Counted from the stretch's first letter, positions 8,978-44,334 are shown. The stretch is 64,000 nucleotides of DNA from Thermoanaerobaculia bacterium (GCA_036397015.1 DASWJT010000119.1:12248-76247), one strand, 5' to 3'. The notes: a model not told the origin generated them from the letters alone. Program-made: numbers and translations.

Positions 8978-11164
8978 ATGAAGCTCCGGCTCGCCGTGCT
9001 CGTCGCCCTCGCGCTCGGAGCGGATGGCGCGCTCGCCGACGCCGACGCGGGCGGCGCGCGCGGCGCCGTGGCGCTCGCCGTCACGCCGCCCGACGAGGTG
9101 CGCGCCGAGCTCGCCGCCGTCTGCGAGCGGCAGCCCGACAGCGACGAGCCGTACACCTACCTCGGCCGCCGCGCGCTCGATCGCATCGAGGCCGCGGCGG
9201 CCGAGCTCGGTCTCGATGTCGCGGCCCGCCAACGGCTCCTGACGCAAGTCGCGCACGGCCACCTGCGATTGGGCGCGCTCGAGGTCGCCACGGAGCGCCT
9301 CCACGCGGCGCTCGCGCTCGCGGCGCCCGCGTCCGAATCGCACCGGCGCCTGCGCCGCGACCTCGCGCTCGTCGAGCTGCGCCGCGCCGAGCAGCGCAAC
9401 TGCGTCCTCCACCACGGCTCCGCCAGCTGCCTCTACCCGATCCGCCCCGGCGGGATCCACCTCGAGGCCGAGCCGGCGCGGCGCGCCGCCGCGCTCTACG
9501 AAGAGCTCCTGCGCGAGGATCCGCAGTCGGCGCAGACGCGCTGGCTGCTGCACCTGACGCGGACGTTGGCCGGCGAGCCCTCGGCGGAAGCGGCGCCGCC
9601 GCCCGACGTCGCCTTCCCGCTGTGGAGCGAGCGCGCCGCCGCCGCCGGCCTCGCGGCGTTCGACCTCGCGGGCGGCGCGGTGATCGACGACTTCGACGGC
9701 GACGGGCGGCTCGACGTCGTCACCTCGACGACCGACGCGTGCGACCACGCCAAGGCGTTCCGCAACCGCGGCGACGGCACCTTCGAGGACGTCTCCCGCG
9801 CCTGGGGCCTCGACGTCCAGTTGGGCGGCCTCAACCTCGTGCACGCCGATTTCGACAACGACGGCCGTCCCGATCTGTTGATCCTCCGCGGCGGCTGGCT
9901 CCACGAGGCGGGGAGCGTGCGCAACTCGCTGCTGCGCAACGATCTCGATCGCGCGAGCGGCAAGTTCGTCGACGTCACCCTCGCCGCCGGCCTCGCCTAC
10001 CCCGCCTACCCGACGCAGACCGCCGCGTGGGCCGACTACGACGGCGACGGCTGGCTCGACCTTTACGTCGGCAACGAGGCCGTGCGCACGGAGCAGAGCC
10101 CCTCGCAGCTCTTCCGCAACAATGGCGACGGCACCTTCACGAACGTCACCCTCGCCGCGGGCGTCGCCAACCTCGCCTACGCCAAGGGCGTCGCGTGGGG
10201 CGATTTCGACGACGACGGGCGGCCCGATCTCTACGTCTCGAACTTGGGCGCCGCCAACCGCCTCTACCGCAACCGCGGCGACGGCACCTTCGTCGACGTC
10301 GCGCGCGAGATGGGCGTCGAGGGTCCGCGGAAGAGCTTCGCCACCTGGTTCTTCGACTTCGACCAGGACGGCCGCCTCGACCTCTTCGTCTCCGATTACG
10401 GCACGCCCTACGAGCAGGTCTCGGCGAGCTACCTCGGCGTGCCGACGACGGGCGGACGGCCGGCGCTCTACCGCAACGAGGGCGGTCGCTTCCGCGACGT
10501 CGCCGCCGAGCGCGGCTTCGACCGGCCGCTGCTGCCGATGGGGGCCAACTACGGCGACCTCGACAACGACGGCTGGCTCGACGTCTACCTCGGCACGGGC
10601 GTCCCCGACCTCGAGGCGCTGATGCCGAACGTGATGTATCGCAACCTGCGCGGAGAGCGCTTCGAGGACGCCACCGCCGCCGGCGGCTTCGGCCACCTGC
10701 AGAAGGGGCACGGCATCGCCTTCGCCGACCTGAACGACGACGGGCAACAGGAGGTCTACGCCCAGATGGGCGGCTTCTTCCCGATCGACGCGTTCTACAA
10801 CGCCCTCTTCGTCGGACCCGGCCACGACAACGTCTGGCTGCAGCTCGAGCTCGTCGGCACACGCGCCAACCGCTCCGGGCTCGGGGCCCGCGTGACGGTC
10901 GAGCTCGAGACGCCCGCCGGCCGGCGCCGCGTCCACCATCTGGCGAGCACCGGCGGCTCCTTCGGCGGCTCGCCGCTGCGCTGCCAGATCGGACTGGGTG
11001 ACGCCACCGCGATCGCGGCGCTCGAGATCCGCTGGCCCGGCAGCGGGACGGTCGAGCGGATCTCCGGCGCCGAGCTCGACCGGCGCTATCGCCTCGTCGA
11101 AGGCAGCGGGCGGCTCGAAGCGCTGCCGCTCGCGCCGTTCGCCTGGCCGGAGCCCGTGCACTGA
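8978..11164 (+). CDS. CRTAC1-family protein (FG-GAP/VCBS + ASPIC/UnbV), secreted
   Basis: ATG at 8978 with signal peptide MKLRLAVLVALALGADGALADA. FG-GAP repeats (DDFDGDGRLDVV, ADFDNDGRPDLL, ADYDGDGWLDLYV, GDFDDDGRPDLYV, FDFDQDGRLDLFV, GDLDNDGWLDVYL). UnbV/ASPIC (HGIAFADLNDDGQQEVYAQMGG...NRSGLGARVTVELETPAGRRRVHHLASTGGSFGGSPLRCQIGLGDA). Confidence 0.8.
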   Translation: MKLRLAVLVALALGADGALADADAGGARGAVALAVTPPDEVRAELAAVCERQPDSDEPYTYLGRRALDRIEAAAAELGLDVAARQRLLTQVAHGHLRLGALEVATERLHAALALAAPASESHRRLRRDLALVELRRAEQRNCVLHHGSASCLYPIRPGGIHLEAEPARRAAALYEELLREDPQSAQTRWLLHLTRTLAGEPSAEAAPPPDVAFPLWSERAAAAGLAAFDLAGGAVIDDFDGDGRLDVVTSTTDACDHAKAFRNRGDGTFEDVSRAWGLDVQLGGLNLVHADFDNDGRPDLLILRGGWLHEAGSVRNSLLRNDLDRASGKFVDVTLAAGLAYPAYPTQTAAWADYDGDGWLDLYVGNEAVRTEQSPSQLFRNNGDGTFTNVTLAAGVANLAYAKGVAWGDFDDDGRPDLYVSNLGAANRLYRNRGDGTFVDVAREMGVEGPRKSFATWFFDFDQDGRLDLFVSDYGTPYEQVSASYLGVPTTGGRPALYRNEGGRFRDVAAERGFDRPLLPMGANYGDLDNDGWLDVYLGTGVPDLEALMPNVMYRNLRGERFEDATAAGGFGHLQKGHGIAFADLNDDGQQEVYAQMGGFFPIDAFYNALFVGPGHDNVWLQLELVGTRANRSGLGARVTVELETPAGRRRVHHLASTGGSFGGSPLRCQIGLGDATAIAALEIRWPGSGTVERISGAELDRRYRLVEGSGRLEALPLAPFAWPEPVH

Positions 11165-11211
11165 CCGGATAGGCTCGCGCTTCGACCGCATTCGTCGGAG
11201 GCCACCTCGCC

Positions 11212-12552
11212 ATGCGCTACTCGACCGTCGCCGATCTTCTCGACCTCACCCGCGAGGGCGAACGGGAGCTCGCCGGAGCTTCCGTCGCGGCGGCCCGCCG
11301 CCTGCTCTTCGCCGACGATCCGTGCGCGCTCGCCGAGCTCGCCGGCTCGTTCACCCTCGTCGCCCGCGAGGGCGAGCGCGTGCGGCTGGCGCGCAGCCTC
11401 GACCGCCCGCTACGCTACTTCCTGGCCAAGCAGCAGGCCGGGCCGCTCCTCGTCGTCGCCGACCGCATCGACGCGATCCGCGACGCCCTCGCCGCGCGCG
11501 GCCTCGACGGCCAGTTCCACCCCTCCTACACGCGCATGGTGCCGGCCCACCACGTCACCGAGATCCGCCTCGTCGGCTGCCCCGATCCCAATCCCACCCA
11601 CCGGCGCTTTTTCGATCCGCCGCGCGGCGTGCTGCCGGCCGACATCGACGTCATCGCTCGCCGCTACGTCGAGGCGCTCGCCGCCGAGATCCGCGCCTGG
11701 CTCGGGCGGATCCCGGCGCGCGAGCCGATCGGCGTCGCCTTCTCGGGCGGGCTCGACTCGGGCGCGGTGCTGCTCGCGCTGCACCACGAGCTCCTCGCCG
11801 CCGGCCAGAGCGCGGCGCGGCTCAAGGCGTTCACCCTCGCCGTCGACGGCGGCGGCGACGATCTCGCGCAGGCGCGCTCGTTCCTGCGCGCCGCCGATCT
11901 CGACTACCTGCACGAGGTGGTCGACATGCCGGCCGACGCCGTCGACCCGCTCGCCGCGGTCGAAGTGATCGAGGACTACAAGCCGCTCGACGTCGAGTGC
12001 GCGGCGATGGCTCTCGCCCTCTGCCGCGGCATCCGCGAGCGCGATCCCGAGTGGCGCCTGCTCGTCGACGGCGACGGCGGCGACGAGAACCTGAAGGACT
12101 ATCCGATCGAGGAGAATCCGGAGCTCACCATCCGCAGCGTCGTCTCGAACCGAATGCTCTACCAGGAGGGTTGGGGCGTCGAGGCGATCAAGCACTCGCT
12201 CACCTATTCGGGCGGCCTCGGCCGCGGCTGCGTGCGCACCTACGCACCGCTCCGGCACTTCGGCTTCACCGGCTTCAGCCCGTTCACGCGGCCGGCGCTC
12301 GTCGCCGTCGCCGAGGCGATCCCGTTCGACGAGCTCGCCGGCGGCTCGCACGAGGTGCTCTACGAGCTCAAGGGCGAGGTCCTCGTGCGCGGCGTCCGCC
12401 AGGTGCTCGGCCGCGAGCTGCCGCGCTTCCCGAAGCGGCGCTTCCAGCACGGCGCGCTCCCCGCCGAGCGCTTCGACGCCGCCTTCGCTGGCGCCGCGCA
12501 GCGCTACCGCGGCCACTTCCTCGCCCTCCACGAGGCGGCCCGAGGGGCGTGA
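11212..12552 (+). CDS. asparagine synthetase-like PP-loop ATP-dependent amide synthetase; N-terminal glutaminase domain degenerate, no Cys2
   Basis: ATG at 11212 with GGAG 11 nt upstream. PP-loop GVAFSGGLDSGAVLLALHHEL. AsnB synthetase-domain motifs (KAFTLAVDGGGDDLAQARSFLRAADLDYLHEV; LLVDGDGGDENLKDY, compare AsnB SGEGSDEIFGGY). The N-terminal ~170 aa resemble a vestigial Ntn glutaminase domain (GSFTLVAREGERVRLARSLDRPLRYF) but lack the nucleophile cysteine. This pattern matches beta-lactam synthetase and lasso cyclase-type AsnB homologs. Confidence 0.75.
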   Translation: MRYSTVADLLDLTREGERELAGASVAAARRLLFADDPCALAELAGSFTLVAREGERVRLARSLDRPLRYFLAKQQAGPLLVVADRIDAIRDALAARGLDGQFHPSYTRMVPAHHVTEIRLVGCPDPNPTHRRFFDPPRGVLPADIDVIARRYVEALAAEIRAWLGRIPAREPIGVAFSGGLDSGAVLLALHHELLAAGQSAARLKAFTLAVDGGGDDLAQARSFLRAADLDYLHEVVDMPADAVDPLAAVEVIEDYKPLDVECAAMALALCRGIRERDPEWRLLVDGDGGDENLKDYPIEENPELTIRSVVSNRMLYQEGWGVEAIKHSLTYSGGLGRGCVRTYAPLRHFGFTGFSPFTRPALVAVAEAIPFDELAGGSHEVLYELKGEVLVRGVRQVLGRELPRFPKRRFQHGALPAERFDAAFAGAAQRYRGHFLALHEAARGA

Positions 12553-13493
12553 CGGCGCCGCTCCCCGCACCCGCCGGCGCCGCCGACCGCACGCGCCCAC
12601 CCGACCCGTGGCACCTCGGCGGCTGGCTGCGCGAGGCGGAGCGCGAGCTCGACCGCGCGGCGCCGGCCGAGGCGCTCACCCTCTTCCTGGTCGGCGCGCG
12701 CTGCCCGTTCTCCTGCCTCTTCTGCGACCTCGCGGCGCAGACGATCCCGGGGCCGACGCCGCGCGGAGCGATCCCGGAGCAGGTCCGCCAGGGCCTCGCC
12801 GCCGCCGGCGCGCTGCCGCGCGGTGCGGCGATCAAGCTCTACAACGCCAGCAACTTCTTCGACGAGCGCGCCGTGCCGGCCGGCGACGACGCCGAGATTG
12901 CCGCGCTGGTTCGCGACTTCGCGCGCGTGACCGTCGAGTGCCATCCGCGCCTGGCGGGCGAGCGCTGCTTCCGCTTCGCCGAGCGCCTCGACGGTGGGCT
13001 CGAAGTGGCGATGGGCCTCGAGACGGCGGCGCCGGGAGCGCTCGCCCAGCTCGGCAAGGCGATGACCGCGGACGATTTCGCGCGCGCCGCCGGCGAGCTC
13101 CGCCGGCGCGGCATCGCGGTGCGCGCCTTCGTGCTGCTCGCGCCCCCTCTCGTGCCGGCCGGCGAGGCGGTCGACTGGGCGGCGCGATCGGTCGCGTTCG
13201 CCGTCGCCGCCGGCGCCGGGCGCGTGACCTTGATTCCGACCCGTGGCGGGCGCCCCGAGCTCGAGCGGCTGGCGCGGCGCGGCGAGTTCCGGCCGCCGAC
13301 GCTCGACGAGCTCGAGGCGGCGCTCGAGCGCACGGTCGAGACGGCCGGCGCCGTCGTCACCGCCGACCTCTGGGACGCGCCGCGTCTCTTCGCCGGCGCG
13401 CCGCGCGCCGAGGAGCGGCTCGCGCGCCTCCGCCGCATGGGTCTGGCCGGCCGGCGGGAGCCACCCCTGGCGACCGCTGTCGCGCCGGCCTGA
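12549..13493 (+). CDS. radical SAM domain protein (CxxxCxxC), ~314 aa, no SPASM-type C-terminal cysteines
   Basis: GTG at 12549 overlaps the TGA of the upstream gene (GTGA coupling). Canonical radical-SAM cluster motif GARCPFSCLFCDL (C-x3-C-x2-C). The remainder has alpha/beta-like composition (IKLYNASNFFDE, VECHPRLAGERCFRF). The upstream 10998..12548 part of the track ORF is a shadow of the asnB-like gene. Confidence 0.7.
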   Translation: MTAPLPAPAGAADRTRPPDPWHLGGWLREAERELDRAAPAEALTLFLVGARCPFSCLFCDLAAQTIPGPTPRGAIPEQVRQGLAAAGALPRGAAIKLYNASNFFDERAVPAGDDAEIAALVRDFARVTVECHPRLAGERCFRFAERLDGGLEVAMGLETAAPGALAQLGKAMTADDFARAAGELRRRGIAVRAFVLLAPPLVPAGEAVDWAARSVAFAVAAGAGRVTLIPTRGGRPELERLARRGEFRPPTLDELEAALERTVETAGAVVTADLWDAPRLFAGAPRAEERLARLRRMGLAGRREPPLATAVAPA

Positions 13494-13515
13494 CCGGCGG
13501 AGGAGCGACCTTACG

Positions 13516-15132
13516 GTGCGCATCCTCGTCGTCGGTTCCGGCTTCGCCGGCTCGATCCTCGCCCGCGTCCTCCACGCCCAGGGCCACGCGGTGACGCTCG
13601 TCGACCGCGCTCGCCACCCGCGCTTCGCCATCGGCGAGTCGTCGACGCCGCTCGCCGCGCTGGCGCTCGAGCGGCTCGCGGCGCGCTACGGCCTCGCCGA
13701 CCTCGCCGCGCTCGCCGCCTACGGCCGCTGGCTCCGCGAGCTGCCGCACCTGCGCCGCGGCTTGAAGCGCGGGTTCACCTTCTACGCCCACCGACCCGGC
13801 GAGAAGTGGACGAACGATCTCGACAACTCACGCCGGCTGCTCGTCGCGGCGAGCCCCGACGACGAGGTCGCCGACGTGCACTGGCTGCGCGCCGACGTCG
13901 ACGCCCATCTCGCCGCGCGCGCCGCCGCCGAGGGCATCGAGGTGCGCGAGGAGACCGCCGTCGCGGACCTCGCGCGGCAAGGCGAGGGCTGGCGCTGCGC
14001 GCTCGTTCGCGCCGGCTGCCGCGAGCGGTTGGAGATCGACTTGGTGCTCGACGCGAGCGGCGCCGGCGGCTTCCTCGGCACCGCCCTCGGCCTCGCCGCC
14101 GCGCCGCATCCGGCGATGCCGGCGACGTGGCTCGTCGGCGGGCACTTCTCCGGCGTCGGCGATTTCGCCGCGGCCGCAAGCGAGCGCGGCGCCGAGCTCG
14201 CTCCGGGCCCCTACCCGGACGAGCGCGCGGCGGTCCACCATCTGCTCGCCGAAGGGTGGCTCTATTTGTTGCCGTTCGACCACGGCGTGGTGAGCGCCGG
14301 CTTCGTGCTGCGCCACGACCGCACCGACGACGAGCTCGCGCGCCTCGCGGCGAGCCACCCCGCGCGTGCCTGGAACGCGCTGCTCGCCAGCTACCCGTCG
14401 CTCGAGGAACAGCTCGGCGGGGCGCGCTGCGAAGTCGGGATCTTTCACGTCACGCAACTGCAGCGGCGCTGGCGCCGCGCCGCCGGGACGGGCTGGGCGA
14501 TGCTGCCGTTCGCCTTCTGCTTCTGGAGCCCGCTCTTCTCGACCGGCATCGCCTGGAGCCTCGTCGGCGTCGAGCGGCTGGCGCGGCGGCTCGAGCCGTT
14601 CGCCTCGCCGCGCGCCGAGCCGGCGCCGGCGCGGCTCTTCGCCGACTACTCGCGGCGGCTCGGCGAGGAATCGGACCATCAGGCCGAGCTCCTCGCCGTC
14701 GCCTACGCGCTCACCGGCCGAGCCGCGCCGTTCTTCTCCTGGAGCCTGCTCTACTTCGCCGCCGCCAGCTTCGCCGAGGCCGAGCAGCGCCTCCTCGAGC
14801 CGCCGGCCGAGGGGTGGGCGTGGGGCGCGCGCGGCTTTCTCGGCGCGCGCGACCGCGTCCTGCGGCGCGCCGTCTCCGCGCTCGCGCCGCGGGCGCGCGT
14901 GCTCGCCGTCGGCGAGGGCGACGGAACCGCCTTCGCCGCCGCCGTGCGCGCCGCCATCGCTCCCCGCGACGTCGCCGGGCTCACGCTCTCCGGCCGCCGC
15001 AACCTCTACGCGGTCGAGGCCGGTTCGCTCCTCGCCGGTGCGGCGCGTCTCGGCCTCTCGCGCGCCGAGCTCGAGCGCCGCCTGCCGCGGCTGCGCTGGG
15101 CAGGGGCACTGCGGGCGCCGGTCGACGGCTGA
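13516..15132 (+). CDS. FAD-dependent oxidoreductase of the flavin-dependent halogenase / tryptophan-halogenase-like family
   Basis: GTG at 13516 with GGAGGAG ~10 nt upstream. N-terminal Rossmann motif VVGSGFAGSILA. FAIGESSTP resembles the GESxxP motif of flavin halogenases (CmlS/PltA-type). EGWLYLLPF only partly matches WxWxIP. Whether it halogenates cannot be decided from sequence. Confidence 0.7.
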   Translation: MRILVVGSGFAGSILARVLHAQGHAVTLVDRARHPRFAIGESSTPLAALALERLAARYGLADLAALAAYGRWLRELPHLRRGLKRGFTFYAHRPGEKWTNDLDNSRRLLVAASPDDEVADVHWLRADVDAHLAARAAAEGIEVREETAVADLARQGEGWRCALVRAGCRERLEIDLVLDASGAGGFLGTALGLAAAPHPAMPATWLVGGHFSGVGDFAAAASERGAELAPGPYPDERAAVHHLLAEGWLYLLPFDHGVVSAGFVLRHDRTDDELARLAASHPARAWNALLASYPSLEEQLGGARCEVGIFHVTQLQRRWRRAAGTGWAMLPFAFCFWSPLFSTGIAWSLVGVERLARRLEPFASPRAEPAPARLFADYSRRLGEESDHQAELLAVAYALTGRAAPFFSWSLLYFAAASFAEAEQRLLEPPAEGWAWGARGFLGARDRVLRRAVSALAPRARVLAVGEGDGTAFAAAVRAAIAPRDVAGLTLSGRRNLYAVEAGSLLAGAARLGLSRAELERRLPRLRWAGALRAPVDG

Positions 15133-19695: not shown

Positions 19696-20604
19696 TCACG
19701 CGAGCAGCTCTGCGGACAGCCACTCCTCGCGCTCGCGTCCGAAGCGTGTGCGCAGCGCGGCGCCGACGCCGACCAGCGTCACCGTCGACCACACCACGAC
19801 GCCGAGCCAGGGCACGAACTTGAGGGTGCCGAGCAGCGCGAGGCCGACGCAGGCTTCGTCGAGCATCGGCCGGCGGCGGCGGCGGCCGACGAGCGCCCGG
19901 CCCGCGGCGCGAAAGACCGCCACGCTGCCCCACAGCTTGGCGGCGAGCGCCGCGAGCACCGCGAGCGCGAGCAGCGGCAGGGCGAAGGCCGAGGGCAGCA
20001 GCGCCGCGAGCAAGAGCGCCGAGAGGAAGAGCGCCACGACCGCCGTGAGGCCGGTGGCGAAGCAGAGCCCCGGCGCGGCGCGCACTTCGGCGGAGGCGGC
20101 ACCGAGCCCGCGCCCGCTGGCGGCGACCAGGCCGATGGTGAGCAGCAGCCACGCCGCCATCAGGCCGAGCTTGGCGCCGACGACGATCGGCGACGTCGCG
20201 GCGAGGCCGAGGCTCGGTCCCTCGAGCAGCGTCAGCCAGGCGCGCGAGAAGGTGGGATAAGCGACGCTGCGGCCTTCGATGCGCGCGCCCGGCGCGGCAT
20301 GCAGCCTGCCGCCCAGCACCTGCACGTGGCCGCGCACCACGGCGGTCGCGGCGAGCTCAGCGTCACCGCCGAGCACAGTGACGTCGCCCGCCACCGTGCC
20401 GGTGATCCGCGCCGTGCCGTCGAGCGCGGTGACACCGGCGAGCGCCTCGCCGTCGACGACGGCGTCGCGCCCGACGGCGACGATCTGGTGACGGGCCACC
20501 GCGCCGCGCTCGAGGACGAGCGCCGGCGCGTCGGAGAGACCCGACGGGAGTGTCGGCGCCGCCGCCAGGGCGAGCGCCAAGCCGAGCGCTGGAAGCAACG
20601 TCAC
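19696..20604 (-). CDS. hypothetical membrane protein with periplasmic beta-helix / bactofilin-like repeat region; third gene of ECF sigma operon
   Basis: Signal-like N-terminus. Repetitive segment GTARITGTVAGDVTVLGGDAELAATAVVRGHVQVLGG reminiscent of DUF583/bactofilin-like repeats, followed by at least 3 predicted TM helices. Start overlaps the anti-sigma stop by 4 bp. Domain assignment is tentative. Confidence 0.5.
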   Translation of the reverse strand: MTLLPALGLALALAAAPTLPSGLSDAPALVLERGAVARHQIVAVGRDAVVDGEALAGVTALDGTARITGTVAGDVTVLGGDAELAATAVVRGHVQVLGGRLHAAPGARIEGRSVAYPTFSRAWLTLLEGPSLGLAATSPIVVGAKLGLMAAWLLLTIGLVAASGRGLGAASAEVRAAPGLCFATGLTAVVALFLSALLLAALLPSAFALPLLALAVLAALAAKLWGSVAVFRAAGRALVGRRRRRPMLDEACVGLALLGTLKFVPWLGVVVWSTVTLVGVGAALRTRFGREREEWLSAELLA

Positions 20605-21185
20605 GCCGAGAGCTTAGAACGGCTCGCAGCCGCCGCGGCGACGGAGCGCGAGCGGCGGCGGATCAGGCGGAAGAGCAGGTAGTTGGTGCCGACGGCGAGC
20701 GCGCCGGCCGCAGCCCAGTTGGCGGCCGAGTCGCCCAGCCACGCTCCGACCGCGCTGCCCAGCCCCTGCCACGAGGCCGAGGCGACGCCGCCGCCGGCGG
20801 CGATGGCCGCGCGCACGAGATCGGCGACGGCATAGAGCGCGGCGGCGGCGCCGCCCGCGGGCGCGAGCTCCGCGGCGCCGAAGCCGACGAGCGCCGCGCC
20901 GGCGCCGCCCACGGCGACGAGCAGGGCCACCGGCAGCGCCCAGGCGCGCGGCGCGCGCGCCTCCCAGGGTGCGGGCTCGAGCGCTGCCATCACCTCGCGT
21001 GCGAATCCGGCGCGCACGTCGACGCGCGCGGTGGCGAGGCGCGACGCGACCGCCGCGCCGCGCGCGAGCTCGGCGCGGCAGGCCGCGCATTCGGCGGCGT
21101 GCGCGTCGAGCTCGTCTTGCGCCGCGCCGTCGAGCACGCCGTCGGCCGCGAGGTCGATCCACTCTGCGTAGCGCTCGTCGTGCAT
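20601..21185 (-). CDS. anti-sigma factor (zf-HC2 / ZAS-type) with C-terminal TM region
   Basis: HxxxCxxC motif (DELDAHAAECAACRAE) in the N-terminal ~40 aa. Hydrophobic C-terminal half. Lies immediately downstream of the ECF sigma gene with a 21-bp gap. Confidence 0.65.
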   Translation of the reverse strand: MHDERYAEWIDLAADGVLDGAAQDELDAHAAECAACRAELARGAAVASRLATARVDVRAGFAREVMAALEPAPWEARAPRAWALPVALLVAVGGAGAALVGFGAAELAPAGGAAAALYAVADLVRAAIAAGGGVASASWQGLGSAVGAWLGDSAANWAAAGALAVGTNYLLFRLIRRRSRSVAAAAASRSKLSA

Positions 21186-21206
21186 CTCGCGCTCCCTCGT
21201 CGCTCC

Positions 21207-21770
21207 TCAGCTCGCCGGCGCGAGCAGCGCCTTGAGCATCTGGCGCGCCCGGAAGAGCTTGTTCTTCACCGTGCCGAGCGGCATTCCCTTCGCCTCCGCG
21301 ATCTCGTCGTAGGCGAGCTCACCGTAGTGCCGCAGCAGGATGAGCTCGCGGTACTCCCAGGGCAGCGCTTCGATCGCCGCCCGCACGCCGGCGTCGCGCT
21401 CGCCGTCGGCGAGCGCCAGATCCGCGGCCGGCGCATCGTCGACCAGCTCGACGCCGCGCTGGAGCTCGCCCTGGCCGTCCTCGTGGTCGCCGATCGGCAC
21501 CATGCGGAAGCGCCGCCGCCGGATCTGGTCGATGGCGGCGTTCTGCGCCACCCGGAACAACCAGGTCGAGAAGCGGTACTTCGGATCGAACCGGTCGAGC
21601 GCCTGATACACGCGAACGAAGACCTCCTGCGCCAGATCGTGGGCGTCGTCGAGATTGCGCACCAGGCGGAAGAGGTAGTTCACCAGCCGCGCCTGGTAGC
21701 GCTCCACGATCTCGGCGAAGCGCTCCCGGTCCCCGGCGAGGACCGCCTCCACGAGCTGTTCGTCCGTCAT
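21207..21770 (-). CDS. RNA polymerase ECF-type sigma-70 factor
   Basis: Sigma-2 region (LVNYLFRLVRNLDDAHDLAQEVFVRVYQALDRFD...FSTWLFRVAQNAAIDQIRRR). Sigma-4 HTH (ELILLRHYGELAYDEIAEAKGMPLGTVKNKLFRARQ). ATG at 21770 (MTDEQLVEAVLAGD). Alternative ATG at 21791 (MPHEPEAM...), 7 codons upstream, is possibly leaderless. Confidence 0.85.
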   Translation of the reverse strand: MTDEQLVEAVLAGDRERFAEIVERYQARLVNYLFRLVRNLDDAHDLAQEVFVRVYQALDRFDPKYRFSTWLFRVAQNAAIDQIRRRRFRMVPIGDHEDGQGELQRGVELVDDAPAADLALADGERDAGVRAAIEALPWEYRELILLRHYGELAYDEIAEAKGMPLGTVKNKLFRARQMLKALLAPAS

Positions 21771-21798
21771 GGCTTCCGGCTCGTGCGGCATGGCTGAG

Positions 21799-21825
21799 TA
21801 CGTGGCGGGGCCGTTTCGGGTTGCA
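21799..21825 (-). promoter_or_regulatory. candidate ECF-type promoter (TGCAAC-N17-CGTA) upstream of the ECF sigma gene
   Basis: Minus-strand sequence tgcaac-ccgaaacggccccgcca-cgtact lies 7-8 nt before the ATG at 21791. The AAC and CGT elements resemble ECF sigma -35/-10 motifs. The inferred TSS falls at or beside the ATG, which implies a leaderless transcript. Confidence 0.25.
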
Positions 21826-21921
21826 GCGGAGCGGTCCGGCGGTGCGGCGGCGGGTGCCCATGGGTGCCGCCGGACCGCGCCGGCGAGGCGCTCGACGAGC
21901 CTCGGGCGACGGCCGGGGATC

Positions 21922-23973
21922 CTACCGGAGCGGCGCCCAGGAGGCGTCGACCTCGCGGATCGCGAGGATGCGATCGCGCTGGCGCAGCCGGTCGAGGACC
22001 GTCTCGCCTTCGACGACGCGGCCGACGACGGTGAAGGCGCCGTCGAGGTGCGGCTGGGGCGCGAGGGCGACGAAGAACTGGCTGCCGCCGGTGTCGGGAC
22101 CCGAGAGCGCCATGCCGATCGCGCCGCGCTCGTAGCGCAGGCGATTGATCTCGTCGCGCAGCCGGTAGCCGGGGCCGCCCCAGCCGTCGCCACGCGGGTC
22201 GCCCCCCTGGGCCACGAAGTCGGGCACGACGCGATGAAACGGCGTGCCGTCGTAGAAACCGGCGGCGGCGAGCTGCACGAACGACAGGCAGGTGAGCGGC
22301 GCCTCGGCGCAGGCGAGCTCGAAGAGCAGGCGGCCGCGCTCGGTCTCGACCGCGAGCCGGCGCGGGCGCTCGGTCTGCCGCAGCACGTCGCGGTAGGCAG
22401 CGAGGTCGCGGCCGGTGGCGACCGCGCCGATCGCGGGCTGCGGCGCGCCGAGCTCGGCGAGGCCCGCGGCCGCCGCCCGGCGCACGAGCCAGTCGCCGTC
22501 CTCGCTCAGGCGGGCGAGCGCCTCGACGATTTCGGCGCGATCGGGCGCCGGCGGCGTCCGGCCGCGCGTCACCAGCACCCGGATGCCGGCCAGGCGGACG
22601 TCGTTCTGCGCGCCGTCGCGGCGGGCGCGATCGACGAGCTCGGCGACGCGCGCCGGCGCGAGCTCCGCCGCCTCGGCGAGGGCGTCGAGCGCCGAGGCCC
22701 GCACCGGCGCATCGGGGTCGGCGAGCGCGGCGAGGAGCGCCGCGCTCTCGCCGCGCCGCGCCAGCGCGTCGAGCGCGGCGATGCGCGTCGGCGGCTCGGC
22801 GTCGCGCGCGAGCTCGAGCACGAGCTCGCGATCGTTCGGCCCGCCCGCCGCTTCGGCGGCGCGCGCGCGCAGCCAGCGGTCGGCGCTTGCGGCGGCCTCG
22901 GCGAGGAGAGCCGGCGCATCGGCCACGCCGCCGGTCGCGAGCGCGACGAGCGCCAGCTCGCGCTCGCGCGGCTCGCCCTCGGCCCAGGCGCCGCGCAGCG
23001 CCGCCTCGAGCGCCGGGTGCGGCAGGAAGCGCCCCGCCGCCTCGAGCGCCGCGGCGCGGATCCCCGGCGCCGGATCGGCGACGAGCGCCGCGAGCCGGTC
23101 GCCCCAGGCGAGCGGCGGCAGCGCCTCGGCGCGCGCGAGCAGGGCGGAGCCGGCGCGCAGCGCCTGCACCCGCGGCGAGACGACCGGGTCGGCGACGAGC
23201 GGCAGCAGGCGCGCGAGGTCGTCGAGCGCGCCCACCTGTCCCAGGCCGCGCGCCGCGGCGGCGCGCACGGCCGGGTCGCGATCGGCGAGGAGACCGCGCA
23301 GGAGCGTCAGGCCCGCCGGCTGCGCCTCGCGGCCGAGGGCGTAAGCCGCGCCGCGGCGCACTTCGGGATCGCCGCTGCGCAGGAGGTCGGCGGCGGCGTC
23401 GACCGCCGCCGGCTCCCGGAAGCGGAAAAGATGCGGCGCGAGGCGCCGCGCGGCCGCCGCCGGGTCGAGCACGCCGAGCGCCCGGCGCACGTCGGCGAGC
23501 GGCGCGGCGAGCTTGCCGAGCGCCTCGACGGCGAGCGCGCCGAGCTCGGGATCGTCGTCGACCGCGGCGACGATCAGCGCGCGCGCCGCCTCGGCCGCGC
23601 CGAGCTCGCCGAGCGCGAACGCCGCCGCCCGGCGCACCTCCGCGTCGACGTCGACGAGCAGGCCCTGCAGCAGGCTGCGGGCGCGCCGGTCGCCGATCCG
23701 GCCGAGCGCCACGGCGAGCGCCCGCCGCACCTCGAGCGGACCGCCGAGCATCGCCTCGAGCGTCTGCGGCTCGTAGAGCCGCCGGTCGGCCAGCATGAGC
23801 AGGAGCGCGCGGCTCTCGAAGCTGGCGTCCACGGTCGTCTCCGGCGCCGCCGGCCGCGGCGCGCTCGCCGGCCGCGGCGGCGACGCGGTGGAGCAGCCTG
23901 CGGCGAGAGCGATCACCGCGAGGGCGAGAGCCGAGGCGAGGCGAGAGGCCGGGGGAACGATCACGCCCCGCAT
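21922..23973 (-). CDS. lipoprotein with HEAT / PBS-lyase-like repeats and C-terminal cyclophilin-type peptidyl-prolyl cis-trans isomerase domain
   Basis: ATG at 23973 with lipobox LAVIALAAGCSTA. Repeated (D/E)xxVRxxAAxALGxxG HEAT-like units. C-terminal cyclophilin signature (FHRVVPDFVAQGGDPRGDGWGGPGYRLRDEI...GAIGMALSGPDTGGSQFFV). The upstream 23974..28215 part of the 2097-aa track ORF is shadow. Confidence 0.8.
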   Translation of the reverse strand: MRGVIVPPASRLASALALAVIALAAGCSTASPPRPASAPRPAAPETTVDASFESRALLLMLADRRLYEPQTLEAMLGGPLEVRRALAVALGRIGDRRARSLLQGLLVDVDAEVRRAAAFALGELGAAEAARALIVAAVDDDPELGALAVEALGKLAAPLADVRRALGVLDPAAAARRLAPHLFRFREPAAVDAAADLLRSGDPEVRRGAAYALGREAQPAGLTLLRGLLADRDPAVRAAAARGLGQVGALDDLARLLPLVADPVVSPRVQALRAGSALLARAEALPPLAWGDRLAALVADPAPGIRAAALEAAGRFLPHPALEAALRGAWAEGEPRERELALVALATGGVADAPALLAEAAASADRWLRARAAEAAGGPNDRELVLELARDAEPPTRIAALDALARRGESAALLAALADPDAPVRASALDALAEAAELAPARVAELVDRARRDGAQNDVRLAGIRVLVTRGRTPPAPDRAEIVEALARLSEDGDWLVRRAAAAGLAELGAPQPAIGAVATGRDLAAYRDVLRQTERPRRLAVETERGRLLFELACAEAPLTCLSFVQLAAAGFYDGTPFHRVVPDFVAQGGDPRGDGWGGPGYRLRDEINRLRYERGAIGMALSGPDTGGSQFFVALAPQPHLDGAFTVVGRVVEGETVLDRLRQRDRILAIREVDASWAPLR

Positions 23974-24017
23974 CGTATCGCCGGCGCGCGCGCGCCCGCC
24001 GCTCGGCGCCCCGGCGC

Positions 24018-26105
24018 TCACCGCGGCGCGCCGGCGAGCGCAGGCTGCCGCCGGGTCGGATCCGGCGCCGGCGGCGCGAGGAGCTCGGCGGGCTTCACGC
24101 CGCCCCAGAGCCGCAGCACGGCGCACGGCGCGAACGGCGGCTCCCCGGCGCCGGCGGGCGCCGAGACGTCGCGCACGCGGACGTGACGGATGTGCGGCCC
24201 CCCCGGCGAGATCCCTTCGAGCAGCGCCCAGACGGGGTACTCGTAGCTCGCCTGGTTGGTGATCAGGCCGACGCGGTCGCAGCCAGCGGCGCGCAGCCGC
24301 GCCAGCAGCCCTCGCAGGTGCGGGCCCTCGCGGGGGCGGCCGGCGAAGAGCTGCCGGCTCGGCGGCGAGGTGAAAACGCTCTCGCCGCCAAAGAGCGGGC
24401 GGATCTCGTTGGCGAGGAGCGGCGGGGTCGCCGCCACCGCCAGCACGAGCGCCGCGGCGAGCGCCAGGCGCCTCGTCCGCCCGCCCGCCAGCGCGGTGCC
24501 GACCCACGGCGCCATCAAAACGAGCGCCGGCAGCAACAGGCGGGCGTTCGCCGTCTGCCAGCGAAAGAGGGCCGCGAAGAGGACGAAGCCCGACAACAGG
24601 CAGAGGAAGTAGGCGCGTCGCACCGCGCGCCACCGGCGCGCGGGCGCCGTCCAGGCGAGGCCGGCGGCGACAGCGAAGAGGAGCAGGTGCAGTGGCGCTC
24701 CGGCGCTGCTCTCGTGTCGCCAGCGGTCGGGCACACGGAACGGCTCGTCGGCGAAAGTCGTGATCGGACCGCGCCGCTCGAGCGCCAGGGCGGCGTGTAG
24801 CGCGCTCGTGGCGCCGGCGACGCTCCGATTCCATGCGTGCCAGGGGCCGGCGAGGAGCGACGCACTGTTGCGCAGGGCGTTCGACATCGTCGTCGCGGCG
24901 AGCGGCCCCGCACCGAGATAGCGCTCGAACTCCGGCGGCCCGAGCGGTTCGCCGAAGACCCGCGCGTTGCGCGAGGCGTGACCGGCGACGAGCGCCGCGG
25001 CGAAGAGCGCGGCGCCGGCGGCCGCCGCAACCAGCGGCGCGCTCGCGACGCCGCGGCGGCGCGCGCGCCGCAGTCGCGCGAGAGTGCACCAGAGGAGGAA
25101 GGGCAGGGCGACGGCCGCGCCGGTCGCCTTGGTCAACAGCAGGAGCCCCGCGGCGCCGCCGGCGAGCACGAGCGACGCCCCCCCGCCCCGGCGGCGCAGG
25201 CGCAGCCCGAGAAGCACGACGGCCACGGCCCAGAACGCCGCGACCTCGTCGGTCTGCGTGCTCGTCGCCTGCAGGATCGCCATCGGGATCGTCGCGGCGA
25301 CAAACGCCGCGACGAGGCGGCCCTGCCGCGCCGCGCCGAGCTCGGCGGCGATCGCCGACGAGCCGGCGACGGCGCCGACGAAGGCCAGCCACTGTACGAG
25401 GTTGGCGAGCGCGTCGCTCCCCACGAGCAGCCGCAGGTGGAGCACCACGAACTCGGCGAACGGCGGAAAGTAGATCTGCTTCAGATTGTGGGTGGCGAAG
25501 TGCGCGACGCTCGCCTGCTGCTGCCAGTGGCGGACGCGCGGGAGGTGGTAGAGCATCGAGTCGAAGTTGTTCGGGGTCGCCGCCAGCGCGACGAGCAGAG
25601 TGACCGCTAGGACGCAACCGACGAGCACGAGCAACAGGAGCTCGCGCCCCGCGGCGCGAAGCGGACGGGCGACAGAGGACGAGGTCTCGACAGCCGGTGC
25701 GGCCGCGCGCCGACCGACCGCGACCATCGCGAAGGCGGCGGCGCTCCAGCCGAGCGCGACCGGCAGGGGCCGGAGCGCCCCGAGCAGGCTCAGAGCTTCG
25801 GTCAGGCCGACGAGAGATGCGCCCCAGACGACGGCGCCGCCCGGCGCGGCGAAGCGCCAGCTCCAGCCGCGGCGCCGCAGCGCCCACATCGCGGCACCGA
25901 GGGCGAGGAGCGGCAGGAGAGCGAGGATCGCGCGCACGGAACGAGAGCCGCGCAGGGTGACGGAGGCCGGGGCCGGATCGGATCCGATCGGCGCCGCGCG
26001 CGGGCGGCGCGACTCTAGCCCGATCGGTCCACCACTCGCCGTCTCGCGCGCCACCCGGTCCGCGGCGAGGGCGAGGCGGGCGGCGATCGAGTAATCTCGC
26101 GGCAT
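24018..26105 (-). CDS. polytopic membrane protein, probable glycosyltransferase family 39 / ArnT-PMT-like
   Basis: >10 hydrophobic helices, non-shadow composition (W/F/Y/H/N-rich loops), ~695 aa, consistent with GT-C fold transferases. Start is uncertain. ATG at 26105 (MPRDYSIAARLALAADRVARETASGG) overlaps the divergent ccmA ATG in a CATG palindrome. GTG at 26054 is an alternative. Confidence 0.55.
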   Translation of the reverse strand: MPRDYSIAARLALAADRVARETASGGPIGLESRRPRAAPIGSDPAPASVTLRGSRSVRAILALLPLLALGAAMWALRRRGWSWRFAAPGGAVVWGASLVGLTEALSLLGALRPLPVALGWSAAAFAMVAVGRRAAAPAVETSSSVARPLRAAGRELLLLVLVGCVLAVTLLVALAATPNNFDSMLYHLPRVRHWQQQASVAHFATHNLKQIYFPPFAEFVVLHLRLLVGSDALANLVQWLAFVGAVAGSSAIAAELGAARQGRLVAAFVAATIPMAILQATSTQTDEVAAFWAVAVVLLGLRLRRRGGGASLVLAGGAAGLLLLTKATGAAVALPFLLWCTLARLRRARRRGVASAPLVAAAAGAALFAAALVAGHASRNARVFGEPLGPPEFERYLGAGPLAATTMSNALRNSASLLAGPWHAWNRSVAGATSALHAALALERRGPITTFADEPFRVPDRWRHESSAGAPLHLLLFAVAAGLAWTAPARRWRAVRRAYFLCLLSGFVLFAALFRWQTANARLLLPALVLMAPWVGTALAGGRTRRLALAAALVLAVAATPPLLANEIRPLFGGESVFTSPPSRQLFAGRPREGPHLRGLLARLRAAGCDRVGLITNQASYEYPVWALLEGISPGGPHIRHVRVRDVSAPAGAGEPPFAPCAVLRLWGGVKPAELLAPPAPDPTRRQPALAGAPR

Positions 26106-26718
26106 GATCGCGGCCTCGCTCCAATTCGCCGGCGTGTCGCGCCGGTTCGGACCGCTGCGCGCGCTGGTCGATGCGAGCGGCGAGGTCGCGGCGGGGGGCG
26201 TGCTCTCGGTGCGCGGGCCGAACGGATGCGGCAAATCGACGCTGCTGCGCTGCCTGGCCGGGCTGCTGCGGCCCGATCGCGGCACGATCGCGGCCCGCGA
26301 GGGGGGGCGCGAGCTTGCGAGCGACGAGCGCCGCTCGCGCGTCGGCTACGTCGCGCCCGACGTCGCCTTCTACGACGAGCTCTCGGGGAGGGAGAACCTC
26401 CGGCTCTACTCCCGGCTGCGCGGCCTCCCCCCCGGGCGCGGCGAGATCCTCCTCGAACGGCTCGGGCTCGCCGGCGAACGGCCGTTCCACGCCATGAGCT
26501 CGGGGATGCGGCAGCGGCTGCGCTGGGCATTCGCGCTGCTGCACGCGCCCGACATCCTCCTCCTCGACGAGCCGTTCCAGAACTTCGACGCGGCGGGCGA
26601 GCGGGCGGCGCGCGAGCTGCTCGCCGAGCGGCTCGCCGCCGGCGCGCTGGCGGTGGTGGCGAGCCCGTCCGACGTCGCGCTGCCGCGGGTGACCGGTGAG
26701 CTCCTCCTGGGCGGCTGA
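26104..26718 (+). CDS. ccmA: heme exporter ABC transporter ATP-binding protein CcmA
   Basis: Typical ABC N-terminus MIAASLQFAGVSRRFG. Walker A GPNGCGKST. ABC signature LSGRENL / SSGMRQRL. Walker B LLLDEP. Small size (204 aa) and position ahead of ccmB and ccmC. Confidence 0.8.
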   Translation: MIAASLQFAGVSRRFGPLRALVDASGEVAAGGVLSVRGPNGCGKSTLLRCLAGLLRPDRGTIAAREGGRELASDERRSRVGYVAPDVAFYDELSGRENLRLYSRLRGLPPGRGEILLERLGLAGERPFHAMSSGMRQRLRWAFALLHAPDILLLDEPFQNFDAAGERAARELLAERLAAGALAVVASPSDVALPRVTGELLLGG

Positions 26719-27373
26719 GGCGGCGGCGGTCTTCGTCAAGGACTGGCGCTGCGAGCTGCGCACCCGCCACGCGGTGGCGACGCTCGCCCTCTTCGCGCTC
26801 ACCACGCTCCTCGTCGCGAGCCTCGTCCTCGGCCCGATCGGCAACGACGCCGAGATGTCCCGCCGCGTCGTGCCCGTGCTCGTCTGGCTGATCGTGCTCT
26901 TCGCCGCCGCCGCCGGCCTGCCGCGCGCCTTCGTGCACGAGGAGGAGAGCCGCACGGCGATCGCGCTCCGGCTCGCCGCGCGGCCGTCGGCGGTCTTCGC
27001 CGGCAAGCTCGTCCACATCGCGACGCTGGTCGCCGCGATCGAGGCGATCGTCGCGCCGCTCGCCGTGGCGCTGTTCGACCTCCGCGTCGCCGCGGCGGCC
27101 GAGCTCGTGGCGGCGCTCGCCGCCGGCGGGCTGGCGATCGCCGCGGCGACGACGCTCCTCGCCGCCATCGTCGCCCAGGGGCGCGGCGCCTCGACGCTCT
27201 TCGCCGTGCTGGCGCTGCCCGTCCTGCTGCCGGCGCTCGCCCTCGCTGTGGCCGCGACACGCGTGGCGCTGACCGGCGTCGCCGAGGGCAACCTCCTCAC
27301 CCTGCTGCTCTTGTATGATGGCTCGGTCGTCGTCGCCGGTTTCCTGCTCTTCCCGGCGATCTGGAATCCGTGA
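26696..27373 (+). CDS. ccmB: heme exporter protein CcmB
   Basis: Six predicted TM helices. N-terminus FVKDWRCELRTRHAV matches the conserved CcmB FxRELR region. GTG at 26696 overlaps ccmA by 23 bp. A different start is possible. Confidence 0.8.
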   Translation: MSSSWAAEAAAVFVKDWRCELRTRHAVATLALFALTTLLVASLVLGPIGNDAEMSRRVVPVLVWLIVLFAAAAGLPRAFVHEEESRTAIALRLAARPSAVFAGKLVHIATLVAAIEAIVAPLAVALFDLRVAAAAELVAALAAGGLAIAAATTLLAAIVAQGRGASTLFAVLALPVLLPALALAVAATRVALTGVAEGNLLTLLLLYDGSVVVAGFLLFPAIWNP

Positions 27374-28035
27374 AGCGCCTCCTCGCACTCTCTCTCTGGC
27401 TGTGGATGGCGGTGGTGATCTGGGCCGCCTTCCACTGGGCGCCGCTCGCCGCCGGCTTCAAGGGCCAGTCGAGCCGCATCCTCTTTTTCCACGTCCCCGT
27501 CGCCTGGGTGTCGTTCGTCGCCTTCATGACCGCCGGCGTCGAGAGCGTCCGCTACCTCGCCGGCCGCCGCGATCCGCGCCACGACCGCTCGGCGGCGGCG
27601 GCAGTCGAGCTCGGGCAGGTCTTCGCCGTCCTCGCCACCGTCACCGGCGCGATCTGGGCGCGCATCATGTGGGGCTCCTACTGGAACTGGGACCCGCGGC
27701 AGAGCGCCATCGTCGTCACCATGCTCTACTACGCCGCCTATCTCGCGCTGCGCCAGGCGATCGCCGACGGTCCCTCGCGGGCCCGGCTCTCCGCCGCCTA
27801 TGCCGTCCTCGGGCTCGTCGTCTCGCCGTTCCTCTACTTCGTGCTGCCGCGGCTCGGCTTCTCGCTCCACCCCGAGCCGGTGATCAACGCCGCGGGCAAG
27901 CTGGAGGTCGAATCCCGCATGCTGGCGGTGCTCACAGCGAGCTCGCTCGGGTTCACGGTACTCTTCTACTGGCTGCATGCGCTCCGGCGCCGGCTGGGCG
28001 CCGTCGCCGCGCACCGCGACGAGGGAGTCGAGTAG
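27370..28035 (+). CDS. ccmC: heme exporter protein CcmC
   Basis: GTG start overlaps the ccmB TGA (GTGA). Tryptophan-rich WWD signature WGSYWNWDPRQ. Conserved histidines in flanking loops. Confidence 0.85.
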   Translation: MKRLLALSLWLWMAVVIWAAFHWAPLAAGFKGQSSRILFFHVPVAWVSFVAFMTAGVESVRYLAGRRDPRHDRSAAAAVELGQVFAVLATVTGAIWARIMWGSYWNWDPRQSAIVVTMLYYAAYLALRQAIADGPSRARLSAAYAVLGLVVSPFLYFVLPRLGFSLHPEPVINAAGKLEVESRMLAVLTASSLGFTVLFYWLHALRRRLGAVAAHRDEGVE

Positions 28036-28146
28036 ATGGGGGGACCAGAGTGGGTGACCGCCGTCAATCTGATCATTTGGACGGGGCTCGTCCTCTGGAT
28101 CTCGCGGCTCGACCGCAAGATCCGCGATTTGGAGCGGGAGCGATGA
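28036..28146 (+). CDS. ccmD: heme exporter protein CcmD (small single-TM protein, 36 aa), absent from ORF track
   Basis: ATG at 28036 lies immediately after the ccmC TAG. Translation MGGPEWVTAVNLIIWTGLVLWISRLDRKIRDLERER has one TM helix plus a basic tail, like CcmD. Its TGA overlaps the ccmE ATG (ATGA). It sits in the canonical ccmC-ccmD-ccmE slot. Confidence 0.5.
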   Translation: MGGPEWVTAVNLIIWTGLVLWISRLDRKIRDLERER

Positions 28147-28538
28147 CGCGCCGAGCCTGGACCGTTGTCGGCATCCTGTTGCTCGTCGGCTTCGCCGGTT
28201 TCGCCTTCGCCACATTCCGCACCACGCTGACGCCCTACGTCAGCTTCGCCGAGGCGCGCGCCGCGAGCCGCGTCGTGCAGGTCGCCGGCGCGCTCGAGAA
28301 GCAATCGACGCGCTACGACACCGAGGCCGAGGCGCTCTACTTCGCGCTGCTCGACGCCGAGACCGGTGCCACCCTGCCGGTGCGCTACCACGGCCTCAGG
28401 CCCGCCAACTTCGAAGACGCCATCTCGATCGTCGCCATCGGCAGCTGGGACGCCGGCGCGCAGGAGTTCCGCGCCGAGAAGCTGCTCGTCAAGTGCCCGT
28501 CGAAGTACCAGGGCGCCGAGGTCAAGACTTACTCATGA
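28143..28538 (+). CDS. ccmE: cytochrome c-type biogenesis heme chaperone CcmE, Cys-type (CxxxY) variant
   Basis: N-terminal TM anchor (WTVVGILLLVGFAGFAFA) followed by an OB-fold-like domain. C-terminal motif VKCPSKYQG is CxxxY in place of the usual HxxxY heme-binding histidine. This variant is described for Desulfovibrio and archaeal CcmE. ATGA overlaps with ccmD and ccmF. Confidence 0.8.
   Translation: MTRRAWTVVGILLLVGFAGFAFATFRTTLTPYVSFAEARAASRVVQVAGALEKQSTRYDTEAEALYFALLDAETGATLPVRYHGLRPANFEDAISIVAIGSWDAGAQEFRAEKLLVKCPSKYQGAEVKTYS

Positions 28539-42726: not shown

Positions 42727-44334
<1,608 letters not shown>

Follow-up and report, generated by a model that had tools for sequence, protein, structure and literature searches.

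In Euryarchaeota, the transferase ArcS adds lysine to its substrate via an amino group, and the associated radical S-adenosylmethionine (radical-SAM) enzyme RaSEA, acting in an obligate complex with ArcS, removes the carbon skeleton of the amino acid while its nitrogen stays on the substrate, converting preQ0-Lys into archaeosine (PMC11298593). The logic of the MnmEG system is comparable, with glycine as the nitrogen donor: the carboxymethyl group of glycine-derived cmnm5s2U is stripped by the radical-SAM enzyme MnmL (YhcC), and the flavin adenine dinucleotide (FAD) enzyme MnmC is its aerobic counterpart (bioRxiv 10.64898/2026.05.18.725915). Here we compare these systems with three adjacent genes, referred to as A, B and C, which occupy positions 11212-15132 of a 64,000-nucleotide stretch of a Thermoanaerobaculia bacterium genome (GCA_036397015.1, DASWJT010000119.1:12248-76247; hereafter, the window). 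They code for an AsnB-like ligase, a radical-SAM protein and a halogenase-like flavoprotein, and make up a genuine three-enzyme operon, self-contained and widely conserved, the function of which has yet to be described; no counterpart of the complete module is on record.

With respect to ArcS-RaSEA, the likeness lies in the coupling of the partner genes, in RaSEA being the best and only strong family match of B, and in the division of labour that we propose for A and B. B, however, scores 70 bits against the RaSEA profile, well under its curated cut-off of 212, and its partner is an AsnB-like ATP-dependent ligase rather than the PUA-bearing ArcS; moreover, the triad is found in bacteria, lacks a 7-deazaguanine context, codes for acidic proteins and includes an extra flavoenzyme. 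The MnmL system likewise brings together a radical-SAM enzyme and a flavoenzyme, and its profile (TIGR01212, MnmL/YtqA) yields weak matches to 9 of the 16 B-family members tested, but the best of these has an E-value of 2.3e-5, B from the window gives no match at all, MnmE and MnmG are missing from the triad, and C resembles halogenases rather than DAO-type enzymes such as MnmC. By enzyme class, a compact set with an amino acid as its substrate, made up of a radical-SAM enzyme, an ATP-dependent amide ligase and an oxidoreductase or hydroxylase, is also found in pylBCD (pyrrolysine) and epmABC (beta-lysylation of elongation factor P). The ligases of these sets are, however, non-homologous to A, being ATP-grasp or aminoacyl-tRNA synthetase-like, and B is no relative of the aminomutases, leaving an analogy only.

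Structure and distribution of the operon

The window has a G+C content of about 75%, which results in many mechanical open reading frames (ORFs), and genes were called by frame analysis of GC content at third codon positions (GC3). Exactly three co-directional genes are backed by this analysis, all on the plus strand: A (11212-12552, 446 aa), B (12549-13493, 314 aa) and C (13516-15132, 538 aa plus stop). In the mechanical listing the frame of B appears as a single long ORF at 10998-13493, and another ORF at 12608-13594, in a frame other than that of B, is spurious. A GGAGG ribosome-binding site (11197-11201, plus strand) is located 10 nt 5′ of the ATG of A. The stop codon of A and the start codon of B share a GTGA (12549-12552, plus strand), indicating translational coupling of the two genes, and the 22-nt gap between B and C (13494-13515) contains a GGAGGAG ribosome-binding site for C (13499-13505, plus strand). 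Identical products and spacings are found in the public gene calls for contigs of the same organism (L090, L091). The organism is represented by a Thermoanaerobaculia (Acidobacteriota) metagenome-assembled genome (MAG), as the prolyl-tRNA synthetase beside the triad is 100% identical to a protein from such a MAG; Myxococcota, which G+C content and the Ccm and bactofilin genes might suggest, were discarded on that ground. The tight co-directional packing described in the first-pass annotation is thus borne out by the sequence, by GC3 and by independent gene calls.

To follow the distribution of the module, one genome per species was scanned with B as the seed, and all loci found in this way therefore carry B. 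At least 532 species-representative genomes contain a relative of B, and the carriers belong to Acidobacteriota, Gemmatimonadota, a few Planctomycetota and others. The best 80 of these come from Thermoanaerobaculia, Vicinamibacterales, other Acidobacteriota and Gemmatimonadota, with single loci from Gemmataceae, from a Verrucomicrobia MAG and from a Rhodanobacteraceae MAG. Gene order was counted in the 73 loci from other species that have enough flanking sequence, four threshold artefacts having been corrected by hand: in 71 of them A is the gene immediately upstream of B, and in 67 C is the one immediately downstream. Conservation of the neighbourhood, which the first-pass annotation had put forward for testing, is therefore not a matter of chance. 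In the six gene-called loci inspected (L001, L002, L004, L086, L088 and L090), A and B either overlap by 4 nt or are separated by no more than 2 nt.

While the order and coupling of the triad are kept across phyla, its flanks vary by lineage, and differ even between the window and its nearest relatives (L086, L088), which shows the triad to behave as a self-contained module. In one sub-lineage (L012, L024 and L059), A and B are present without C at the locus and are followed by a convergent gcvP (glycine dehydrogenase) gene, and A-B is thus the obligate core. A locus in the Verrucomicrobia MAG (L066, 5785-6780), in which B stands without A or C right after fusA-rplC-rplD in a fragment of the S10 operon, was set aside as a B-only case, since its codon GC is unlike that of its neighbours and the contig is probably chimeric. 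The first-pass annotation named no pathway that uses this combination, and none emerged: no curated family matched the triad, PADLOC models of anti-phage defence gave no match, and no published description of the gene combination was found, including in the literature on TIGR01210/COG1244 and on ASPIC/UnbV.

Relatives of the three proteins

All motifs quoted in the first-pass annotation were found in the translated genes, and its assignments of A to the AsnB homologs with an intact PP-loop but without the glutaminase cysteine, and of C to the flavin-halogenase family with a degenerate WxWxIP motif, hold, while its description of B stood in part. In A, the PP-loop FSGGLDS occupies residues 177-183 and GDGGDE residues 287-292, and a GCPDPNP loop at 122-128 is invariant in the orthologue alignment. 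The protein begins with MRYSTV, and its Ntn-like domain is truncated and devoid of the Cys nucleophile; an N-terminal Cys is absent from all 24 orthologues aligned, the N-termini of which are variable. A has an AsnB/beta-lactam synthetase fold without Cys1. The Pfam Asn_synthase match is limited to residues 166-304, and the AsnB profile TIGR01536 yields 39.7 bits against a curated cut-off of 267.1. Judged by the missing Cys1 and by this score, A is not a member of AsnB proper. A profile built from the 24 orthologues retrieves human ASNS from the PDB with marginal significance (E 0.012) from the PP-loop to GDGGDE (residues 165-297), with no sequence similarity past residue 297, and a direct search of A against solved structures gave no match; its C-terminal half is family-specific. 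Beta-lactam and carbapenam synthetases share with A an AsnB fold without glutaminase activity, but the similarity is limited to the ATP-binding core, the N-domain of A is truncated, and the Tyr-Glu dyad and Lys of beta-lactam synthetase lie beyond the alignable part. Furthermore, the triad occurs in primary-like genomic settings, and no clavam or carbapenem cluster genes were seen at any locus examined.

The degree of conservation of A deserves attention. In the alignment of 24 sequences, column identity averages 77%, and A is 68-70% identical to its counterparts in other Thermoanaerobaculia, compared with 70-73% for the adjacent prolyl-tRNA synthetase; over all loci the median identity of A is 64.5%. 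The constraint on A is thus about that of an aminoacyl-tRNA synthetase. Its best-conserved segments are the GCPDPNP loop (window 11575-11595) and residues 293-337 (window 12088-12222), and the same two segments have the lowest confidence in the predicted structure (predicted local distance difference test, pLDDT, below 50); ordering of these segments may require a partner or substrate. Three cysteines are frequent among the 73 orthologues (C123 in 71, C263 in 68 and C340 in 60), but they do not form a strict set of three, and an Fe-S cluster in A was rejected.

B carries the radical-SAM motif CPFSCLFC (CxxxCxxC) at residues 52-59, and its predicted structure is confident (pLDDT 88). No curated family cut-off was passed in Pfam/NCBIfam-type profile searches, and to that extent the claim that the protein cannot be placed in a characterised subfamily was correct; it overlooked, however, a specific kinship. 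The RaSEA profile (TIGR01210) matches all 16 B-family members tested, with E 1.9e-19 for B from the window and 9.6e-24 at best. These profile matches make RaSEA and MnmL/YhcC the only specific, if distant, relatives of B, and the kinship suggests a type of reaction; neither by score nor by context does B itself appear to be a RaSEA or an MnmL. Direct comparison with solved structures returned noise alone. The B family is discrete: at E <= 1e-30, its members among 1.84 billion representatives fall into 449 clusters of 50% identity.

The first-pass annotation had also noted the lack of SPASM or twitch cysteines. This is true of the copy in the window, which has no C-terminal Cys, but most orthologues (about 80 of 85) end in a CxxC-(22)-CxxC tail, lost from the window copy (region 13395-13493) and from its nearest relative, P0002. 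The tail does not follow a SPASM pattern, and profile searches found no SPASM match in B. An auxiliary cluster formed by other cysteines was considered and rejected, as C131 and C140 are not conserved across the wider family. A metagenomic protein of 450 aa (P0486) is encoded by a single ORF in which the C-terminal portion of B runs directly into the N-terminus of C (…CPSC-ISS-IVGSGFGG…). This may be a Rosetta-stone fusion or the result of a frameshift in the gene call; the C-terminal end of the protein seems to be out of frame.

C displays the FAD-binding GSGFAG at residues 7-12, GESSTP at 40-45 and GWLYLLPF at 247-254. Pfam Trp_halogenase (PF04820) matches it with 4e-15 (56.1 bits, cut-off 21), and Pfam DAO also matches, over residues 2-298, with 4.5e-9. 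Among solved structures, CtcP and PltM are retrieved with E 1e-29 over about 360 residues, and C is a genuine relative of these phenolic flavin-dependent halogenases. Their catalytic residue is Lys98 in CtcP, which is equivalent to Lys87 in PltM (PMC12400496). Lys84 of C aligns with Lys98, the only Lys in the CtcP segment SHGQKSNFGF, and is kept in 68 of 70 C orthologues. Thus, fold, FAD motifs and catalytic Lys are shared with CtcP and PltM. WxWxIP, on the other hand, is replaced family-wide by GW[M/L]Y.L[R/P]F, with Tyr for the second Trp in 63 of the 70 and L-R or L-P in place of IP, so that C has two of the three sequence hallmarks of flavin halogenases. It differs further in its C-terminal domain, which is variable within the family, and in having neither a reductase partner that we could find nor a surrounding biosynthetic gene cluster. 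A D338S replacement in the second FAD motif does not point to decay, since 19 of the 70 orthologues have it. C also bears a weak similarity, mainly in the FAD-binding N-terminus, to QhpG, LodB and GoxB, flavoenzymes that modify peptidyl-Trp.

Genomic surroundings

De novo clustering of neighbouring ORFs revealed a single neighbour family that recurs across phyla, namely secreted FG-GAP/ASPIC (UnbV) proteins, the genes for which occur no more than 7 kb from the triad in 25-32 of about 85 loci. The window contains four of them together with a tetratricopeptide repeat (TPR) gene between 1006 and 11164, all with signal peptides; the last of the four (8978-11164, plus strand, identified by Pfam) adjoins A, with 47 nt between its stop codon and A, and no further ASPIC-like genes are found elsewhere in the 64 kb. 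In the Gemmataceae MAG (L061), an ASPIC gene begins 4 nt after C. Most Thermoanaerobaculia loci, however, have no ASPIC gene, and the triad is found there beside aroDE, his genes and a DedA-rhodanese gene instead. ASPIC proteins are an expanded paralogue family in Acidobacteria (PMC3174227), and their link to the triad is unproven. No PEP-CTERM or other sorting tags were detected on the ASPIC neighbours. Six Gemmatimonadaceae loci (L036, L038, L041, L052, L072 and L077) have an RnfD/NqrB-like polytopic membrane protein gene convergent with C and then two ASPIC genes, and eight loci have a SusD/RagB-like gene about 3.5 kb upstream.

Neighbour clustering yielded no recurring transporter, regulator, carrier protein or flavin reductase; tgt, mnm and que genes do not recur near the triad, and no ArcS, TGT or PUA genes are present in the loci. 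Rfam searches of the window and five diverse loci found no riboswitch or other RNA element near the triad. The first-pass annotation had pointed out that a lasso B-protease, a leader peptidase and a precursor ORF were all lacking, and this was upheld: there is no leader peptidase, B-type protease or recognition element (RRE) of systems for ribosome-made peptides that are modified after translation (RiPPs) among the neighbours in gene-called loci as judged by Pfam. A RiPP with an adjacent precursor was rejected, small ORFs lying up to 900 nt from the triad, in all six frames of about 80 loci, clustering among close relatives alone; in the window, the room beside the triad amounts to 47 nt on the upstream side and 33 nt on the downstream side. 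Given the lack of a conserved small ORF at the triad, the analogy that had been drawn between A and lasso-peptide cyclases is weak.

Several features of the window and of other loci are recorded here for completeness. The sole Rfam match in the window is a thiamine pyrophosphate (TPP) riboswitch at 42755-42859 (59.8 bits) upstream of thiC; it overlaps the provisional TTG start of that gene at 42808, and the true start must therefore be further downstream (the match to Pfam ThiC sets in at residue 42). No tRNA genes are present in the window. A region at 21800-26285 reaches 80% G+C and contains a mechanical ORF of 2097 aa on the minus strand; GC3 supports a gene of 755 aa on the same strand at 24018-26285, which has no Pfam match. 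A minus-strand operon at 19696-21791 codes for an extracytoplasmic function (ECF) sigma factor, an anti-sigma factor of the zf-HC2 type and a bactofilin-like/DUF8173 protein. Further along are a Ccm system I operon, at 26104-30799, and an XerC/D-type recombinase gene, at 32091-33047. In the Gemmataceae MAG locus L061, two overlapping matches to the small RNA Acido-Lenti-1 lie on opposite strands at 803-915.

A tentative reaction scheme and its alternatives

The scheme that we prefer, and advance with considerable reserve, is one in which A attaches an amino acid to a carboxylate activated by adenylation, B breaks the N-C bond so that a primary amide is left, and C carries out an oxidation or halogenation. 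A, an AsnB-type ATP-pyrophosphatase that has lost its glutaminase nucleophile, would adenylate a carboxylate of a cytoplasmic substrate and, having no Gln-derived ammonia at its disposal, would join the activated group to the amino group of an amino acid (e.g. Gly or Lys), yielding an N-substituted amide. B would then abstract a hydrogen adjacent to the nitrogen and cut the N-C bond, so that the carbon skeleton of the amino acid is lost and a primary amide remains; the amino acid would stand in for ammonia, the part played by lysine in the synthesis of archaeosine and by glycine in that of mnm5U. Finally, C, which resembles CtcP/PltM and would depend on FADH2 and O2, would use its halogenase Lys to halogenate or hydroxylate the same substrate, or else provide an O2-dependent route for the same oxidative step. 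The amino-acid amine, the cleavage of the adduct and the role of C are all inferred from distant homology and gene coupling: B's relatives N-dealkylate, A has no internal ammonia source and the two genes are translationally coupled. Retention of the halogenase Lys and the B-C fusion ORF are the reasons why C may halogenate or hydroxylate, and the MnmC precedent together with the A-B-only loci the reasons why it may instead be an O2-dependent route. What the operon makes is probably a small molecule or cofactor that stays inside the cell, since the triad is accompanied by no transporter, regulator or precursor gene.

Several considerations weigh against this scheme. Free ammonia as the amine, or lactam formation by A, would be compatible with the same observations; the substrate-binding half of A has no detectable relative in the profile search against the PDB, and hence does not indicate the carboxylate. 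The scheme would work without C, and N-dealkylation would not explain why the halogenase Lys of C is conserved. In addition, the characterised relatives of B act on tRNA, while acidic isoelectric points would weakly oppose RNA binding, so that the analogy is at best partial.

A possible, though doubtful, alternative is a pathway of the natural-product type leading to a small molecule or cofactor, in which A would make an amide or a lactam directly, in the manner of beta-lactam synthetase or CarA, or with free ammonia, B would catalyse an unrelated radical step (rearrangement, C-C formation or methylation), and C would be a true halogenase of a phenolic or pyrrolic intermediate. CtcP and PltM, its nearest solved relatives, halogenate free phenolic small molecules and the Lys is kept, which agrees with such a role, as do the acidic proteins and the absence of a precursor ORF. 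The module, however, comes without a transporter, regulator, carrier protein or flavin reductase, and its surroundings of housekeeping genes in hundreds of species, together with housekeeping-level conservation of A, are atypical of secondary-metabolite clusters; besides, WxWxIP is not conserved, some lineages dispense with C, and the only specific relatives of B are N-dealkylases. It seems rather unlikely that B and C are O2-independent and O2-dependent alternatives for a single N-C cleavage following A, in the manner of YhcC/MnmL and MnmC in mnm5s2U synthesis. That precedent, the DAO match of C, the loci where C is dispensable and the facultative or microaerobic soil bacteria among the hosts argue for it, but C is far nearer to FADH2-dependent halogenases than to amine oxidases and keeps their Lys, the B-C fusion suggests joint action, and A-C-only loci are beyond the reach of a search seeded on B.

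Modification of tRNA or rRNA, with A amidating or aminoacylating a carboxylated nucleoside and B trimming the adduct as in ArcS/RaSEA and MnmEG/MnmL, must be regarded as unlikely, even though both characterised relatives of B act on tRNA, conservation is at the housekeeping level, and the CxxC...CxxC tail of most B orthologues is zinc-ribbon-like. All three families are acidic to neutral (median isoelectric point 5.8-6.4), profile searches detected no PUA, THUMP or TRAM domain in A, B or C, and tRNA-modification genes do not recur nearby; a small-molecule or protein substrate is favoured over tRNA because of the isoelectric points and the missing RNA-binding domains. We also know of no AsnB-type enzyme that acts on RNA. 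Modification of a protein or peptide, whether RiPP-like or as maturation of the secreted FG-GAP/ASPIC neighbours before export, appears very unlikely. The proximity of ASPIC genes in several phyla, co-directional and nearly abutting in the window and in L061, the resemblance of C to QhpG, LodB and GoxB and the AsnB-like nature of lasso cyclases speak for it; yet that resemblance is mainly confined to the FAD-binding N-terminus, no small ORF is conserved beside the triad, leader peptidase and RRE are absent, and ASPIC neighbours are missing from most Thermoanaerobaculia loci and from the window's near relative L086; ASPIC being an expanded paralogue family in Acidobacteria, the adjacency may be due to chance.

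Returning to ligation by A and excision by B, A and B could represent an unrecognised type of amidotransferase, in which a whole amino acid acts as ammonia surrogate and is subsequently excised by a radical-SAM enzyme, extended beyond tRNA to a metabolite or cofactor of Acidobacteriota and Gemmatimonadota that C would further halogenate or oxidise; we regard this broader proposal as improbable on present evidence, though worth stating. If the proposed scheme holds, it would amount to a new way of synthesizing amides without glutamine or free ammonia, and to the first non-tRNA role in the RaSEA/MnmL radical-SAM lineage. C, in turn, could show what a halogenase homologue does when it lacks WxWxIP but has the catalytic Lys. 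The self-contained nature of the three genes makes heterologous expression a realistic way to reach the product. The triad occurs in hundreds of species from Acidobacteriota and Gemmatimonadota, which are among the most abundant and least understood soil phyla, and the conservation of A at the level of an aminoacyl-tRNA synthetase implies that the product of the module is probably important.

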